Below are positions 7,229 through 54,675 of a stretch of DNA of 64,000 bases, one piece after another. The notes beneath the pieces are model-generated. The model ran no database searches and was not told the DNA's origin. It saw nothing but the letters and a program-made list of their open reading frames with translations. Positions within the stretch are counted from its first letter, which is position 1. Each line of letters opens with the position of its first letter. The translations under genes and the position numbers were made by a program. This DNA is from an uncultured Verrucomicrobiae bacterium (GTDB taxonomy: Bacteria > Chlamydiota > Chlamydiia > Chlamydiales > Rhabdochlamydiaceae): the NCBI GenBank assembly GCA_963718565.1, contig OY970364.1, forward strand, positions 1,312,001-1,376,000, given 5' to 3'.

Positions 7229-7249
7229 GAGGAGTTTTGCAATTCCCTC
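7229..7249 (-). repeat. Solo end of palindromic element family A
   Basis: Exact reverse complement of GAGGGAATTGCAAAACTCCTC. Confidence 0.85.
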
Positions 7250-7303
7250 ATTTATTTTTACATTTGCAATAGATTAAAACTGCGCTTAGAATGTTTACTT
7301 CTT

Positions 7304-7377
7304 GTCCTCGTAGCTCAGGTGGATAGAGCGGTCGCCTCCTAAGCGGCAGGTCGCGCGTTCAACTCGCGCCGAGGACG
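7304..7377 (+). tRNA. tRNA-Arg(CCT)
   Basis: Acceptor GTCCTCG/CGAGGAC, D-arm TAGCTCAGGTGGATAGAGC, anticodon loop CT-CCT-AA, T-loop GTTCAA. Confidence 0.95.
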
Positions 7378-7378
7378 C

Positions 7379-50651: not shown

Positions 50652-52549
50652 TCAAGTTTTGAAGAGCGGAAGATCTTTTTAATTTTCTGATTAGCCAGGC
50701 GCACTCCGCGAGTGTGGGCCCCTTTGATCGGGATTTGTTTCAGCTCGTAGATCAGTTTTTTCGCTTTTTGGCGAGCGGATGATGGCGCAAAGTGAAGTTC
50801 CACAGCGGGATCGGGATGTGCCGAAAAGTGTAGCAGTTCGCTCTTTTCATCGAGGTATCTGTACACTTTTTGAAGGATAAACTTATCGACGACAAAGCGC
50901 TTACCCCAAACGTGGCCAGTCGCGCAGTGTTTGTAGACTATGCTAATCACCGTCTTTTTATCGGCAATCATGACCCAGGCGACATTTTCGACATATTGCT
51001 TTTCTGGGATATTGATCACAGAATAAGTTCCATCCTTGCAAAAGATGAGTAGCTTGTCAAAGTTGGTGCATTCCAGTTGAACAGATCCTGGAATCTTGGT
51101 TCCGACAAAGCCGCTTTTGGGATCAAAACCCACTTTGATCTGTTTGGTCTCGATGGCGCGGCGGTCGATCTCTTCGATCGCTTTAATCCGAGTTTTTCGA
51201 GGGAAATCTTTTCCAAACTTCTCAATGAGGTTCTTGAGATAGCGGATCGTGTACTTCTTGACATTCTTAAGATCTTTTTCCACTTTGACTAAGCTCTCTT
51301 TGAGAAGGGCGATTTCTTCCTGGTTTTTATCGATGTCAAAGCGGGAAATGCGGCGGATGGGGATTTGAAGCAGCTTTTCTCGGTCTTCAATGGTTGGCTT
51401 GCGTAAAAGCTTTTTCATATAAGGCTTGAAGGCCGCCTCGAGGGTCTGATGAATGCCTTCCAGGGTTTTGATCGTCTCGATTTTCTTATAGATACGCTTT
51501 TCAATAAAAATGCGCTCCAACGTTTGATAAAAGATCTTCTCAAGCAGGCGATCGCGTTCAATCTCGAGCTCGCGCTTGAGGAATTCCATCAGTTTTTCTG
51601 CATTATAGCTCAGAATTTCATGGACATCGGTCTCCCAAGGAAGCCCCTCTTTGATCACGATGATTTGCGAGTTGAGTGCCACTTCACATTCTGTAAAGCC
51701 ATAAAGAGCATCTAAGATCTCTTCAGCATATTGGCCGCGTGGGAGTTTGATCTCGATTTCGATGTCTTTGGCAGTATAATCGTTGATCGCCTCGATTTTG
51801 ATTTTCCCTTTTTTGGCCGCTTCATCGATGGAGCGAATGAGACTTTCTGTCGTCGTGCCGTAGCAGATTTCGCTGATGACAAGCGTTTTTGGGTCCTTGA
51901 TTTCGATTTTTGCTCGGAGTTTGATCTTGCCTCGGCCTTTGTCGTACTGGCTTTTGTCCATGATCCCGCCCGTGGGGAAATCGGGATAGATCTTAAACGA
52001 TTTTCCTTCAAGATAAGCGATTTCCGCTTCGAGAAGTTCTGTGAAATTATGCGGCAAGATGTGCGTCGACATCCCCACCGCAATCCCATCTGCTCCTTGC
52101 ATGAGCAAGAGAGGAATTTTTGCAGGCAGTGTCACTGGCTCTTGATTTCTGCCATCGTAGGAAGGGATTTTTTCTGTGAGATCGGGATTAAACATTGTCT
52201 CGCGTGCAAGCGGCGAGAGGCGCGTTTCGATATAACGGGCAGCCGCTGAAGGGTCTCCTGTAAAGATATTCCCGAAGTTTCCCTGTCTGTCTAGAAGATA
52301 GCCTTTGTTTGCCAAGTTGACGAGAGCCTCGTAGATCGGGGCATCTCCATGCGGATGGAATTGCATCGTCTGGCCGACAATGTTGGCAACTTTGTGGAGT
52401 TTTTCATCGCTTTGCCTCCACAGTGTTTCCAAAATCCGCCTTTGCACAGGTTTGAGCCCATCGACGACATTCGGAATCGCCCGATCGAGAATGACATAGG
52501 AAGCATATTGGATGAAGTGATCCTTCATCTGTTGTTTAAGATCATCCAT
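50642..52549 (-). CDS. parC: DNA topoisomerase IV subunit A (chlamydial GyrA2/ParC)
   Basis: DGLKPVQRR, FHPHGD, AAARYIE. Short chlamydial form. Confidence 0.92.
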   Translation of the reverse strand: MDDLKQQMKDHFIQYASYVILDRAIPNVVDGLKPVQRRILETLWRQSDEKLHKVANIVGQTMQFHPHGDAPIYEALVNLANKGYLLDRQGNFGNIFTGDPSAAARYIETRLSPLARETMFNPDLTEKIPSYDGRNQEPVTLPAKIPLLLMQGADGIAVGMSTHILPHNFTELLEAEIAYLEGKSFKIYPDFPTGGIMDKSQYDKGRGKIKLRAKIEIKDPKTLVISEICYGTTTESLIRSIDEAAKKGKIKIEAINDYTAKDIEIEIKLPRGQYAEEILDALYGFTECEVALNSQIIVIKEGLPWETDVHEILSYNAEKLMEFLKRELEIERDRLLEKIFYQTLERIFIEKRIYKKIETIKTLEGIHQTLEAAFKPYMKKLLRKPTIEDREKLLQIPIRRISRFDIDKNQEEIALLKESLVKVEKDLKNVKKYTIRYLKNLIEKFGKDFPRKTRIKAIEEIDRRAIETKQIKVGFDPKSGFVGTKIPGSVQLECTNFDKLLIFCKDGTYSVINIPEKQYVENVAWVMIADKKTVISIVYKHCATGHVWGKRFVVDKFILQKVYRYLDEKSELLHFSAHPDPAVELHFAPSSARQKAKKLIYELKQIPIKGAHTRGVRLANQKIKKIFRSSKLDQT

Positions 52550-54359
52550 TTTCGTTCACAAGGTTATGCATGATAAAGGCTTTGCGCTCAGGAGTATTTT
52601 TCCCCATATAAAATTCAAGAGTTGGCTTGATATCGGAAAGGTTTTGAATCATCACTGGCAATAGTCGAATATCTTTCGGCGATAAACTGTTTAAACTCGT
52701 TTGGAGAGATCTCTCCAAGCCCTTTAAAACGCGTGATTTCAATGCCTCTTTTTCAGCTCGCGCAGCGCGTCTTCTTTTTCTTCTTCCGAATAGCAATAGA
52801 TTGTTTTTTCTTTATTCCTCACTTTAAAAAGGGGGGTTTCCAGAATATGAAGATGGCCGTTTAAGACAAGCCCTTCAAAATAGGTGAGAAAAGAAAGTGA
52901 TCAGAAGATTGCGGATATGCATCCCGTCGACATCGGCATCGGTGGCAAGGATCACTTTGTTGATAGCGGAGATTGGTGAGATCCTCTTCGATATTCAAGG
53001 CTGACATGAGATTGTACATCTCTTCATTTTTATAGAGCTGATCGAGCTTCATGCCATGGACATTCAGCGGTTTGCCGCGAAGAGAAAAGACAGCCTGTGT
53101 CAGTGGATCGCGCGTCATGACGATCGATGCTGAGGCAGATTCCCCTTCTGTGAGGAAGATCATCGACTCTTCGCCCTTCTTTTGTCCCATCGCCGAAATG
53201 GAATTTGGAATCGCGCAGTTTTGGGATTTTGAATGAGATTTTTTTCTGTTTTTCTTTCGCCTCTTTTTTAACCGCGGCGAGCTCTTTCCGCAGCTTTTCA
53301 TTAAACAGAGATCCGCTCGATAATCTTGCTTGCCATCCTCGGGAAATTTATAGAGAAGGTTTTGAACAGCATCTTTAACTTCTTGGACAATGGGCGCGCG
53401 GATCTCATTATTGGACAATTTATTTTTCGTTTGAGATTCGAAGACAGGGTCTTTGACTTTGATGAGGATCGCCCCGACGATCCCTTCGCGCACGTCGACG
53501 CCTTGGAAATTTTTCTTCGCATAACTCATTGATCCCTTTCAATATTCCTTCTCGGAATGCAGAAAGGTGGGTCCCGCCATCTTGCGTATATTGGCCGTTG
53601 ACAAAGGAAAAATAGCGTCTCGCCATAACTTGAGGAATGCAGAAAGGCAAATTCGACATGTTTTCCGCGCTAATGCAGCGGTTCATACAGGCGATCTTCT
53701 TTGACCTCGTCATTTAAAAGATCGAGCAATCCATTTTCCGATCGGATCGTCTTGGCCATTGAATAGAAGAGCAAGCCCTGTATTGAGATAGGCATAATGC
53801 CAGAGGCGCTTGAGGATCGTCTCTTTTTGGAAGGAAAACTTTTTAAAGATGTGGGATCGGGAATGAATTCGATCCAAGTGCCATCCGCTTCTTTTGTTTT
53901 TCCTTTCTTCTTTTCTTTAAGGACACCTTTCGACAAAGCGCGCTTCGACAAATTCCCCTTCGCGGAAGCTTTTCACGACAAAGTGAGAAGAAAGAGCGTT
54001 AACCGCCTTTGTACCCACCCCATTGAGGCCCACAGAAAACTGAAAAACATCATCATTGTATTTGGCGCCTGTGTTGATCTGACTCACGCATTCGATAACT
54101 TTGCCGAGAGGAATCCCGCGTCCCCAGTCTCGCACTGACACTTTTGAGGTTTTCTCATCGAGCTCGATCGCGATCTTTGGCCCTGATGCATGATGAATTC
54201 ATCGACGGAGTTGTCGATCACTTCTTTGAGCATGACATAGATTCCATCATCGGGATGGGAACCATCGCCAAGACGGCCAATGTACATTCCTGGACGAAGC
54301 CGAATGTGAGCCAATGCATCTAAAGATAAAACTGTACTTTCATCGTATTTTTTAGCCAT
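52542..54359 (-). CDS. parE: DNA topoisomerase IV subunit B, with many frameshifts (probably assembly errors)
   Basis: [59 protein letters not shown] across frames. Confidence 0.9.
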
Positions 54360-54481
54360 AATGGTCTATATTATCACTTTATATTTATTTATTGCATAGA
54401 TATTTTGCTTATATTTTTTAAAATCAATTATTTTGAATTAATTGTCAATTAATTACAAACCATTCATTATGAATGCTTCAA

Positions 54482-54675
54482 ACTGAAGAGTTGAGAAGAA
54501 CTTGTCCACACCACTAGTAGCGTCGCCGGCCTCAATTCTAGAAAGAATATTTTACCACCCGCTTCGCAAGCTCGCTCGAGAGCGAGCTTGCGAAGCGGGT
54601 GGTAAAATGGATTTCTTTTAGAACCGAGGTTGGAAAGGGCAGCGATTTTGACAAATTTTTTCTCAACTCTTCAGT
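54482..54675. repeat. Full-length palindromic element, family D (194 bp)
   Basis: TIR ACTGAAGAGTTGAGAA / TTCTCAACTCTTCAGT, perfect central stem of about 28 bp (54549-54608), intermediate imperfect stems. Confidence 0.9.

Follow-up and report, generated by a model that had tools for sequence, protein, structure and literature searches.

Hairpin elements of the MITE kind and their insertion-sequence partners in a Rhabdochlamydiaceae genome

As far as is known, classical Chlamydia genomes are almost free of repeats. Among described palindromic repeats, the Rickettsia palindromic elements (RPEs) have, to our knowledge, no clear terminal inverted repeats, target-site duplications (TSDs) or insertion sequence (IS) partner, and we know of no terminal inverted repeats or TSDs in REPINs. 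A MITE with a defined parent is MITECca01 of a Cardinium endosymbiont, which derives from the IS982-family ISCca4 (PMC9769881). Work on IS-rich chlamydial symbionts counts transposase genes, and the word 'MITE' occurs 0 times in PMC9723776. Our literature searches turned up no catalogue of such elements for chlamydiae, in agreement with a sequence-only reading of the present locus, which knew of none for environmental chlamydiae.

That reading concerned the window analysed here, the whole stretch of 64,000 nucleotides, and it took the long hairpins, solitary ends and chimeric stacks of this DNA for an interoperable system of non-autonomous repeats. Terminal inverted repeats, TSDs and copy number support non-autonomous mobile repeats of the MITE kind. 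A common system was not borne out; the window very probably holds pieces of at least six unrelated MITE families together with decayed IS ends, each family having been moved by a transposase of its own.

Hairpin families in the window and across the genome

Inverted repeats are present where they had been reported, at elements of families A, B, C and D, at 30475 (family E) and at 38533 (family F). The elements are:

8119..8238, unstranded: B element of about 116-120 bp, shortened relative to the 164-bp MITE, with 22-nt arms (91%)
9732..9913, unstranded: A MITE, full-length 182-bp class, with 24-nt terminal inverted repeats (96%)
30462..30629, unstranded: E element of the short type, lying between the copies of a 9-bp direct repeat (30453-30461, 30630-30638)
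38533..38615, unstranded: F hairpin element, with 39-nt arms (97%)
40285..40491, minus strand: C, an internally deleted one-ended copy of an IS66-like IS (IS alignment)
45449..45552, plus strand: C one-ended fragment, the outer terminus and first 104 nt of the IS66-like IS (100% to IS positions 1-104)
54482..54675, unstranded: D element, 194 bp, with 22-nt inverted ends (inverted-repeat search)

The hairpin elements are real and are spread across the 2.28-Mb genome, where the small ones occupy ~43 kb on top of full ISs, themselves present in more than 100 copies. Ends number 292 for A, 57 for B, 94 for C and about 55 for E, and motif counts for these four families lie far above reversed controls: the A 17-mer has 292 genome matches against 2, the A 21-mer (at most 2 mismatches) 213 against 0, the B 16-mer (at most 1 mismatch) 34 against 0, the C outer end (at most 4 mismatches) 109 against 1 and the E end 55 against 4. 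D is low-copy and F single-copy in this genome. The earlier reading had also proposed a search with Rfam and RPE models; an Rfam scan of the window at the gathering score returned 3 tRNAs only, and no hairpin family was matched.

The ends of A, B, C and E are unrelated, and their TSDs measure 4 bp, about 7 bp, 8 bp and 10 bp, respectively, which indicates different transposases. Each family would have been moved, now or formerly, in trans by a different DDE transposase, which would recognise the family's own terminal inverted repeats and leave a family-specific TSD. We infer which enzyme moved which family for the individual cases below.

In the B element at 8119-8238, the 16-mer lies at 8121-8136 and 8221-8236. 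Eight copies of 164-165 bp share 90% identity, and a perfect 7-bp TSD flanks 3/16 B elements, compared with 0/64 in the control. Of 401 genomes of the class, 108 carry the B end, frequently in pairs spaced 145-165 bp. No partner IS was found for B in this genome, nor in the sole long B-flanked pair checked (2649 bp), which contains ordinary genes.

For E, an inverted repeat was called at 30456-30638, and the stop codon of the prolyl-tRNA synthetase gene sits in the right copy of the flanking direct repeat. The ends read CAGGG, with a 10-bp TSD visible in 6 of 10 pairs. Resident ISAs1 copies likewise have CAGGG ends and 10-bp TSDs, and their similarity to E stops after the 5 terminal bases; these common bases and the TSD length suggest a link between E and ISAs1.

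D contains a perfect 29-nt inner hairpin (54549-54608) that is found at 4 other loci, and its copies comprise one full element, one half (genome 927729-927846) and one end (40492-40524). F matches only itself in this genome and is multi-copy in five relatives (G001, G003, G002, G241 and G430, with 13-18 matches each). No transposase partner was found for D or F.

The sequence-only reading had proposed a comparison of empty sites. Relatives G018 and G014 have the site of the window's E without the element, and the C/D block described below is absent from the orthologous spacer in G003 and G001; the spacer of the B element at 8119-8238 corresponds to unrelated sequence in G004.

Families A and C and their insertion-sequence partners

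The A element at 9732-9913 belongs to a group of 25 copies of 181-183 bp with a mean pairwise identity of 95.5%. Folded as single-stranded DNA it reaches -80.4 kcal/mol (z = -16.5), and its flanks show no perfect TSD. The family comprises size classes of 182 and 257-259 bp. Among 79 two-ended elements of at most 400 bp, 52 have a perfect 4-bp TSD, compared with 1/316 in a shifted-flank control, and 27 do not; the target among the 52 TSDs reads T (40/52), W, W, A (34/52).

The 17-nt A end is identical (17/17) to the ends of IS5/IS1182-like ISs in other PVC genomes, with copies of 1575 bp in a Rhabdochlamydiaceae MAG (L076, L094) and of 1555 bp in L087. A perfect 4-bp TSD flanks two of these three full copies and is absent for L087. 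The encoded proteins of 383-390 aa carry the domains DUF772 and DDE_Tnp_1, both above the Pfam cut-off (33.3 and 52.4, respectively), and score below the NCBIfam cut-offs for IS1182 (86.7 vs 270) and IS5_4 (61.5 vs 140); some database entries among their close relatives are named 'IS5 family transposase'. The IS has a long subterminal hairpin at each end, and the interiors of the 182- and 257-bp A classes are unrelated to it beyond the 17-nt end. Members of the IS5 group typically generate TSDs of 4 bp. End identity and TSD length suggest that A was moved by an IS5-like enzyme; the family uses IS5/IS1182-like ends and inserts at T-W-W-A with a 4-bp duplication.

In this genome, a tblastn search for an intact IS5-like transposase returned fragments only, among them a 150-aa piece behind an A-variant end, and the DUF772 profile was not found. 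Since the transposase survives here only as fragments, the A copies are probably fossils of a past burst, and they would be immobile at present.

Family C has its parent in the genome itself. The copy at 40285-40491, which adjoins the mnmA stop codon, matches positions 1-179 of the IS66-like IS over 40491-40313 (97%) and positions 1785-1816 over 40316-40285 (100%); inverted repeats of the family were found at 40380-40472 and 45476-45552. The resident parent measures 1975 bp and carries an ORF of 543 aa, whose protein scores 55.6 bits on Pfam DDE_Tnp_IS66 (PF03050; cut-off 23.1) and 97.8 on NCBIfam IS66, below the cut-off of 180. The transposase is the only long ORF of the parent; a single further ORF reaches 100 aa (103 aa, opposite strand), and accessory ORFs for TnpA or TnpB were not seen. 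Each end of the parent is a 130-bp hairpin, which is also found alone as a 131-bp MITE, and the C ends begin with GTA; an 8-bp TSD and GTA-starting ends are hallmarks of IS66. The two-ended C elements (n = 24) are graded in size from 131 to 2178 bp, and 21 of them have a perfect 8-bp TSD, compared with 0/96 in the control. C consists of internal-deletion derivatives, graded in length, of this resident IS; it duplicates 8 bp of its target and may still be mobile.

The window also carries ISs of other types:

10007..11132, plus strand: IS630-family IS, 1126 bp, ~15 genome copies (NCBIfam IS630, 190.9 bits)
45988..47475, plus strand: IS256-family IS, 1488 bp, ~11 copies (NCBIfam IS256, 344 bits)
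48715..50669, plus strand: IS607-type IS with serine-recombinase TnpA and TnpB, 1955 bp, ~11 copies (profile search)

Position 48686, supposed earlier to be a B end, falls just outside the IS607-type IS. A search for transposases sharing ends with the hairpins had been proposed, with IS630, IS5 and RAYT as candidates; such partners exist as an IS5-like IS for A and an IS66-like IS for C, whereas the IS630-family ends match none of the hairpin families and RAYT is absent.

Solo ends, stacks and stop codons

Besides complete elements, the window contains solitary and fused ends:

7229..7249, minus strand: A solo end, 21 nt, right-end orientation, identical to 9893-9913 (17-mer at 7233-7249, 0 mismatches)
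17743..17767, plus strand: A solo left end (motif match)
32172..32191, plus strand: B solo end (16-mer at 32174-32189, 2 mismatches)
32920..33064, unstranded: chimera joining a B left arm to a hairpin and right end of the A variant (IS-end type) (16- and 17-mer matches)
35750..35771, plus strand: A 22-nt mini-palindrome, a left end fused to the last right-end bases (motif match)
40492..40524, minus strand: D right end adjoining the C outer terminus, 84% to 54639-54687 (D 16-mer at 40509-40524)
44990..45010, plus strand: A/B fusion 21-mer, an A left end and a B right end joined via a common 8-mer (motif match)
45225..45250, minus strand: B solo end (16-mer at 45233-45248, 0 mismatches)

The solo ends noted earlier for A (7229, 17743 and 35750) and B (32172 and 45225) hold. 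The 'B end' at 48686 does not: it fails to match the B 16-mer with 4 mismatches allowed, a setting that already yields about as many matches for the reversed control (246) as for the motif (276). The A end at 17743 shares its first base with the stop codon of the TPR gene upstream, where ORF 17348-17743 ends, the mini-palindrome lies at the 3' end of a split clpB gene, and the B end at 45225-45250 adjoins the 3' end of tRNA-Arg(TCG) (45255-45330). All three reported stacks, 32920-33064, 44990 and the C plus D end at 40285-40524 (first given as 40380-40524), were recovered. In the first, the B 16-mer (32922-32937, 1 mismatch) and the A 17-mer (33048-33064, 1 mismatch) flank an inner 17-nt hairpin (32977-33039) resembling the subterminal hairpin of the IS5-like IS.

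Chimeras of this kind could be read as products of one interoperable modular system, in which ends would be interchangeable, sites reused and small DNA pieces shuffled. The three stacks are real, and the genome contains the A/B fusion 21-mer (at most 1 mismatch) at 5 loci that differ in their flanks; B ends with an A interior occur as well (for example near genome positions 1449213 and 2192413), A lies inside the AT-rich subterminal stretch of B at several loci, and the relative's same spacer held a different insert in all three cases compared, clearly palindromic in two. However, beyond the unrelated ends and the differing TSD lengths, the A and B consensus sequences have only 8-mers in common, which is enough for microhomology deletion and insufficient for a common recognition site. 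There was no sign of host DNA being transported between ends, and the 1634-bp A pair and the long B pair enclose ordinary genes with no matching TSD logic. Members of different families neighbour each other at the frequency expected by chance: 5 B ends have an A end within 60 nt, against 3.8 +/- 1.9 expected, C-A neighbours number 6 against 6.4, and every other family pair 0. The sequence-only reading had named, as what would refute it, families that are simply the termini of known ISs with chimeras not in excess; A and C do carry termini of recognisable IS types and chimeras are not in excess, while B, D and F have no known partner. We regard a common system as highly improbable. We give practically no credence to the view that a RAYT transposase (Y1, IS200-like) has propagated these hairpins in the manner of REPs and REPINs; the repeats are indeed palindromic, abundant and mostly extragenic, but the elements are 130-260 bp long with terminal inverted repeats and TSDs, and Y1_Tnp (PF01797) has 0 matches in this genome in a search that was positive in 6/14 control genomes. 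Under the account of separate MITE families, the elements would have inserted into one another, with subsequent deletion between short direct repeats; the long hairpins would aid such deletions, and solo ends, mini-palindromes and chimeras would be their secondary products.

The hairpins had further been described as lying almost all against start or stop codons. By our own reading, ~10/14 elements of the window have a stop codon or tRNA end no more than 15 nt away, and to this extent the description stands for stops; genome-wide it is overstated. Termini overlapping or within 10 nt of a stop codon number 62/292 for A, 20/57 for B, 13/94 for C and 1/35 for E, compared with about 2% of random non-coding positions, all these figures covering stops and resting on our own crude ORF calls with the most upstream start taken. 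A bias towards stop codons does hold for A, for which 10/35 targets overlap a stop codon, compared with 6.2% under a target-motif null (P = 4e-5); this 4- to 5-fold excess, likewise based on our own ORF calls, persists when the minimum ORF length is set to 150 or 250 aa, and the target motif alone does not account for it. The reconstructed empty sites of A are intergenic in 25/52 cases and at stop codons in 10/52.

This bias would suit hairpins that serve the host as terminators, mRNA stabilisers or RPE-like in-frame peptide modules and are kept by selection, as would the 6/79 A copies traversed by a reading frame that stays open for 40 codons or more to either side and a length plus TSD divisible by 3 in the 182- and 257-bp classes. 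Such service is nevertheless very unlikely to explain the elements: the mobile origin of the elements is evident from their TSDs and IS partners, relatives manage without the window's copies, Rfam offers no match, and the bias may also reflect selection against insertions into promoters and coding sequences. A more particular reading, unlikely in our judgement, makes A the chlamydial counterpart of RPEs with an IS5-like pedigree, in which T-W-W-A and the 4-bp duplication would let it land on stop codons and restore them and the multiple-of-three length would let some copies persist in frame. If so, the A hairpins at 3' ends and in frame would have passed a filter as harmless or useful modules, or been co-opted in part, and the hairpin built into each IS end would be the birth route of such MITEs from a single end.

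Significance and comparison with known systems

Gene prediction suffers from the hairpin elements, since starts and stops of predicted ORFs are placed within them; the elements also flag insertions specific to a species and may promote deletions. Cataloguing their ends and TSD lengths would improve annotation, provide markers to date IS bursts across the genus and offer a tractable case of a MITE burst outliving its transposase. The preference of A for stop codons is a small peculiarity open to testing.

Like the repeats of REP/REPIN-RAYT systems, the present ones are abundant extragenic palindromes, but they are longer, have TSDs and occur without a Y1 transposase. They resemble RPEs in being palindromic repeats of an obligate intracellular host, a minority of which lie in ORFs without breaking the frame, and differ in that most copies are intergenic, with terminal inverted repeats, TSDs and an identifiable IS partner. 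The A partner agrees with IS5/IS1182 in its DUF772 and DDE_Tnp_1 domains and 4-bp TSD, and departs from it in falling below the NCBIfam equivalog cut-offs and in the long subterminal hairpin at each end. The C parent is like single-ORF IS66 elements in its Pfam domain, 8-bp TSD and GTA ends, but it scores below the NCBIfam cut-off, shows no TnpA/TnpB and has 130-bp hairpin ends.

A close parallel among IS-derived bacterial MITEs is MITECca01 (PMC9769881), which likewise consists of short non-coding elements bounded by the terminal inverted repeats of an IS; its host too is intracellular and rich in ISs, and the amplified forms range from deletion derivatives to minimal ones. There, a single MITE is sustained by intact parental copies, whereas at least six families coexist here, and A, the most abundant of them, has lost its transposase from the chromosome and in its usual form has nothing beyond the 17-nt ends in common with the IS. 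The families described here are further MITEs of an already known kind, and leave the known picture of how MITEs work unchanged.

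The hairpin families and their insertion sites

The long hairpins listed by the sequence-only reading are all present in the window, and most of them are repeated genome-wide at levels far above controls.

Hairpin families and their examples in the window
A: 9732-9913
B: 8119-8238
C: 40285-40491
D: 54482-54675
E: 30462-30629
F: 38533-38615

The A 21-mer, searched with up to two mismatches, has 213 genome matches as against none for the reversed pattern, and the A 17-mer has 292 as against 2 in the control. The corresponding counts are 34 against 0 for the B 16-mer (up to one mismatch), 109 against 1 for the outer end of C, and 55 against 4 for the end of E. 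Family D is low-copy, with one full element, one half and one end, and its inner hairpin occurs at four further loci. Family F has a single copy in the studied genome, and each of five relatives gave 13-18 matches to it. The ends of A and B that had been listed as standing alone are borne out, except for the supposed B end at 48686, where there is no B-motif match wherever the motif beats its control. An Rfam search of the window returned three tRNAs and no other match. The 25-nt stretch at 8080-8104, left of the B element, matches the arm of a different palindromic element in a relative's genome (G004, L138:1262-1530), which lies in a spacer beside a 6-phosphogluconate dehydrogenase gene; this match suggests a further hairpin family.

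The genome is a single contig of 2,284,058 bp with 43.6% G+C, of which the window occupies positions 1312001-1376000. Housekeeping genes predominate in the window, where an ATP/ADP translocase (TLC), cell-wall genes, dnaA, F-box/WD40 proteins and large autotransporters are found; an environmental chlamydia would fit both this gene content and the relatives that were identified. The window aligns collinearly with relatives of the genus, at identities of 65-89%. At the E site, one relative (G018) has no element and carries the region of the duplicated 9-mer in single copy, and another (G014) has a different short insert. The C/D site measures about 10-20 bp in G003 and G001 compared with about 300 bp in the window, and is occupied by a different palindromic insert in G005. 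The spacer with the solo A end at 7229 contains another palindromic element in G004. Since these sites are empty or otherwise filled in relatives, these window insertions are lineage-specific. Anecdotally, as seen in all three of the spacers examined, permissive spacers take different elements in different species. Four public DNA runs (contigs of low depth, from the same organism or one nearly identical to it) contained no joint skipping an element, and were uninformative on polymorphism or excision.

Other features were observed in the window. A tRNA-Arg(TCG) gene with about 90 nt of upstream sequence is duplicated at 96% identity (45255-45416 and 47660-47821); between the two copies lie a C fragment, a WD40 gene fragment and an IS256 copy, and a B end stands in place of the sequence directly 3' of the first copy. 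Apparent gene decay is seen at 15049-15959, 33309-35482 and 52864-53529. The rsmH (MraW) gene is split into two ORFs, only a fragment is left of a GyrB-like gene, and clpB appears as two ORFs, across which the alignment of the relatives runs without a break. The repeat at 19387-20536 was considered as a MITE (a small non-coding transposon relic) and rejected, as it belongs to a diverged F-box/WD40 gene family. Its members at 19387-20536 and 45551-46093 are 65-74% identical to a cluster near genome position 1.476-1.497 Mb, and surface as repeats in self-comparison without being mobile elements.

Target-site duplications and proposed parent insertion sequences

Pairing adjacent inverted A ends yielded 79 elements no longer than 400 bp. 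Two size classes dominate, one of 182 bp (25 copies spanning 181-183 bp, with a mean identity of 95.5%) and one of 257-259 bp (18 copies); they differ solely by a central 76-bp block. There are also shorter forms, end-to-end fusions measuring 71, 56 and 47 bp. The window copy folds into a near-perfect hairpin (-80.4 kcal/mol, z = -16.5). Flanking direct repeats of 4 bp are perfect in 52 of the 79 elements, as against 1/316 when the flanks were shifted as a control; among other repeat lengths none is prominent, and the target consensus is T-W-W-A.

The host genome is rich in full insertion sequences (ISs), as revealed by self-comparison and family scans.

Resident multi-copy ISs (approximate genome copies)
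IS630, 1126 bp: 15
IS701: 12
IS3, two types: 11 and 6
IS256: 11
IS607 with TnpB: 11
IS1634: 18
ISAs1, 1301 bp: 13
Unclassified IS, 2035 bp: 6

In none of these ISs do the ends match those of A, B, C or D, and they were rejected as partners of these hairpins. A 1740-bp unit flanked by A ends and carrying an ISAs1 transposase had pointed to ISAs1 as the autonomous partner of A. This partnership was rejected because, once all copies were mapped, ISAs1 proved to measure 1301 bp, to have CAGGG ends of its own and to have inserted into an A-variant element. The 2035-bp IS (L010:1-2435; G000:C1:523355-525389, outside the window) is flanked by an 8-bp repeat and has a 474-aa ORF that matched no Pfam or NCBIfam family; its closest Atlas clusters are labelled transposase or hypothetical and lack a Pfam family, and it may represent an undescribed transposase family.

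When public genomes were scanned for the 17-nt A end, at least 97 stretches matched, and many Chlamydiae, Verrucomicrobia, Victivallales and Acidobacteria MAGs are among the matches listed. This end flanks two 1575-bp elements in a Rhabdochlamydiaceae MAG (L076 and L094) and a 1555-bp element on another contig (L087), each coding for a protein of 383-390 aa that contains DUF772 and DDE_Tnp_1 domains and whose best NCBIfam scores fall under the IS1182 and IS5 cut-offs. Perfect 4-bp duplications flank two of these three copies. Judged by its ends and duplications, this IS appears to be the real partner of A, residing outside the studied genome. Close relatives of its transposase are highly abundant in metagenomes (E <= 1e-10 in 7999 of 8000 scored candidates), and some are named IS5 family. 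In the studied genome, a 150-aa stretch of this transposase lies directly inside an A-variant end; besides it, tblastn gave fragments only, and a DUF772 search gave no match. Among the 19 genomes of the genus searched, the 150-aa fragment matched the studied genome only. No lead came from an open frame of 245 aa at genome position 2209898. Classified by the four bases following the 17-mer, the 292 A ends include 168 of the common MITE type and 44 of the IS type, and past the 17-nt end the interior of the common MITE shares no similarity with the IS. Other species of the genus carry A-like elements of about 78-80% identity at several loci, and the exact A end is far rarer there (0-17 matches per genome).

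The outer terminus of family C starts GTACGTCC. It has 24 two-ended elements, which form a graded series starting at 131 bp (10 copies) and extending to 2178 bp; 21 of them bear a perfect 8-bp duplication, compared with 0/96 in the control. The parent is a 1975-bp element at genome positions 1252311-1254285 with a 543-aa ORF, which scores above the threshold of the Pfam IS66 DDE model and below the NCBIfam cut-off. Many genome loci match nested parts of this parent, as expected for internal deletions. Each end of the parent is a hairpin of about 130 bp holding an inner inverted copy of the terminus, and the A-type IS ends are built in the same manner.

Family C copies in the window
40285-40491: one-ended copy, an internal deletion joining IS positions 1-179 to 1785-1816
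45449-45552: fragment, the first 104 nt of the IS

Family B is an element of about 164 bp, represented by 8 full copies (90% identity) and a total of 57 ends. It probably makes a 7-bp AT-rich duplication, which is perfect in 3/16 cases compared with 0/64, with several near-matches by eye. Of 401 genomes sampled from the class, 108 contain the B end; copy numbers reach 55-114 in some, and the ends frequently form pairs with a spacing of 145-165 bp. Searches for a transposase partner were negative in the studied genome and in the one long B-flanked pair checked, in G384, which encloses a helicase-like gene and a membrane protein.

Family E has CAGGG ends and occurs as 145-190-bp forms and as non-coding foldbacks of about 720 bp. 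Six of 10 pairs show a 10-bp duplication, and the window copy is flanked by a 9-bp repeat. As the resident ISAs1 likewise combines CAGGG ends with a 10-bp duplication, it is a plausible but unproven mobiliser of E. Two E-linked tandem arrays lie outside the window.

E-linked tandem arrays
G000:C1:1847633-1848357: tandem array of an E end, 178-bp period
G000:C1:2001640-2002400: separate array of about 127 bp, adjoining another E end

One system or independent families

The three chimeric stacks claimed for the window are present: B with an A-variant (32920-33064), an A/B fusion (44990), and C with a D end (40285-40524). They had been taken to reflect a single interoperable system built from the ends of the families. 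This proposal fails its own test. The ends and duplication lengths differ between families, and the closeness between families is at chance level. IS families have typical duplication lengths and terminal bases, as compiled in ISfinder. The distances between the ends of different families were compared genome-wide with those of random non-coding positions; B ends near A ends were observed 5 times (3.8 +/- 1.9 expected), C ends near A ends 6 times (6.4 expected), and other inter-family pairs were not observed. The A and B consensus sequences have nothing beyond 8-mers in common.

The A/B fusion 21-mer, found at 5 loci, has its junction precisely at an 8-mer common to the two ends. It could have arisen by the insertion of A into B, followed by deletion of the DNA between the two 8-mers. 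At one locus the order is a B left end, an AT-rich subterminal stretch and the fusion, as expected from such a sequence of events. Similar short-repeat deletions across the hairpin might account for the 22-nt mini-palindrome at 35750 and the 47-72-bp A forms, and we infer that short-repeat deletion is the source of both fusions and mini-palindromes. Nested mobile DNA is also found outside the window.

Nested mobile DNA
G000:C1:1624273-1626012: ISAs1 copy within an A-variant element
G000:C1:1131537-1134149: tandem pair of ISAs1 copies
G000:C1:794663-796840: unclassified 2035-bp IS within a C MITE

The repeats resolve into a number of MITE and IS-end families that are independent of one another, in a chlamydial genome rich in ISs; nesting and deletion are secondary processes. 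The original observation is real and merits cataloguing, and the biology is ordinary; only the stop-codon bias and in-frame copies of A go somewhat past expectation.

Stop codons, in-frame copies and known MITEs

By crude ORF calls of our own (1873 ORFs), termini overlap a stop codon or lie within 10 nt of one in 62/292 cases for A, 20/57 for B, 13/94 for C and 1/35 for E, compared with about 2% of random non-coding positions. Rebuilding the empty sites of the 52 A copies with perfect duplications placed 10 targets on stop codons, 25 in intergenic DNA, 10 in the first 60 nt of a called ORF, 6 in an ORF body and 1 in the last 30 nt of an ORF. When the observed A target 4-mers were placed in the tolerated space as a null, 10/35 targets at stop codons contrasted with 6.2% (P = 4e-5), and the excess was retained with ORFs of at least 150 aa (9/36 vs 4.6%) and at least 250 aa (7/40 vs 2.5%). 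Part of it arises from the target itself: many T-W-W-A sites contain TAA or TAG, and the duplication restores the stop; the rest may be due to selection against insertions in promoters or coding sequence. Long ORFs read through 6 of the 79 A copies, and the copy in tsaB is an A element with a TTAA duplication. The sum of A length and 4-bp duplication is a multiple of three in both main classes (182+4, 257+4) and in 45 of 79 copies, a curiosity only, as the copies are not independent.

Our literature search found no description of MITEs in chlamydiae. The main text of a large MITE census makes no mention of Chlamydiae, although its supplements may list some. In a study of chlamydial symbionts of arthropods, IS expansion and pseudogenes are discussed without the word MITE (PMC9723776). 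A counterpart comes from a Cardinium endosymbiont, in which an IS982-derived MITE was described, and the authors stated that they were aware of no earlier MITE report in maternally inherited endosymbionts (PMC9769881).
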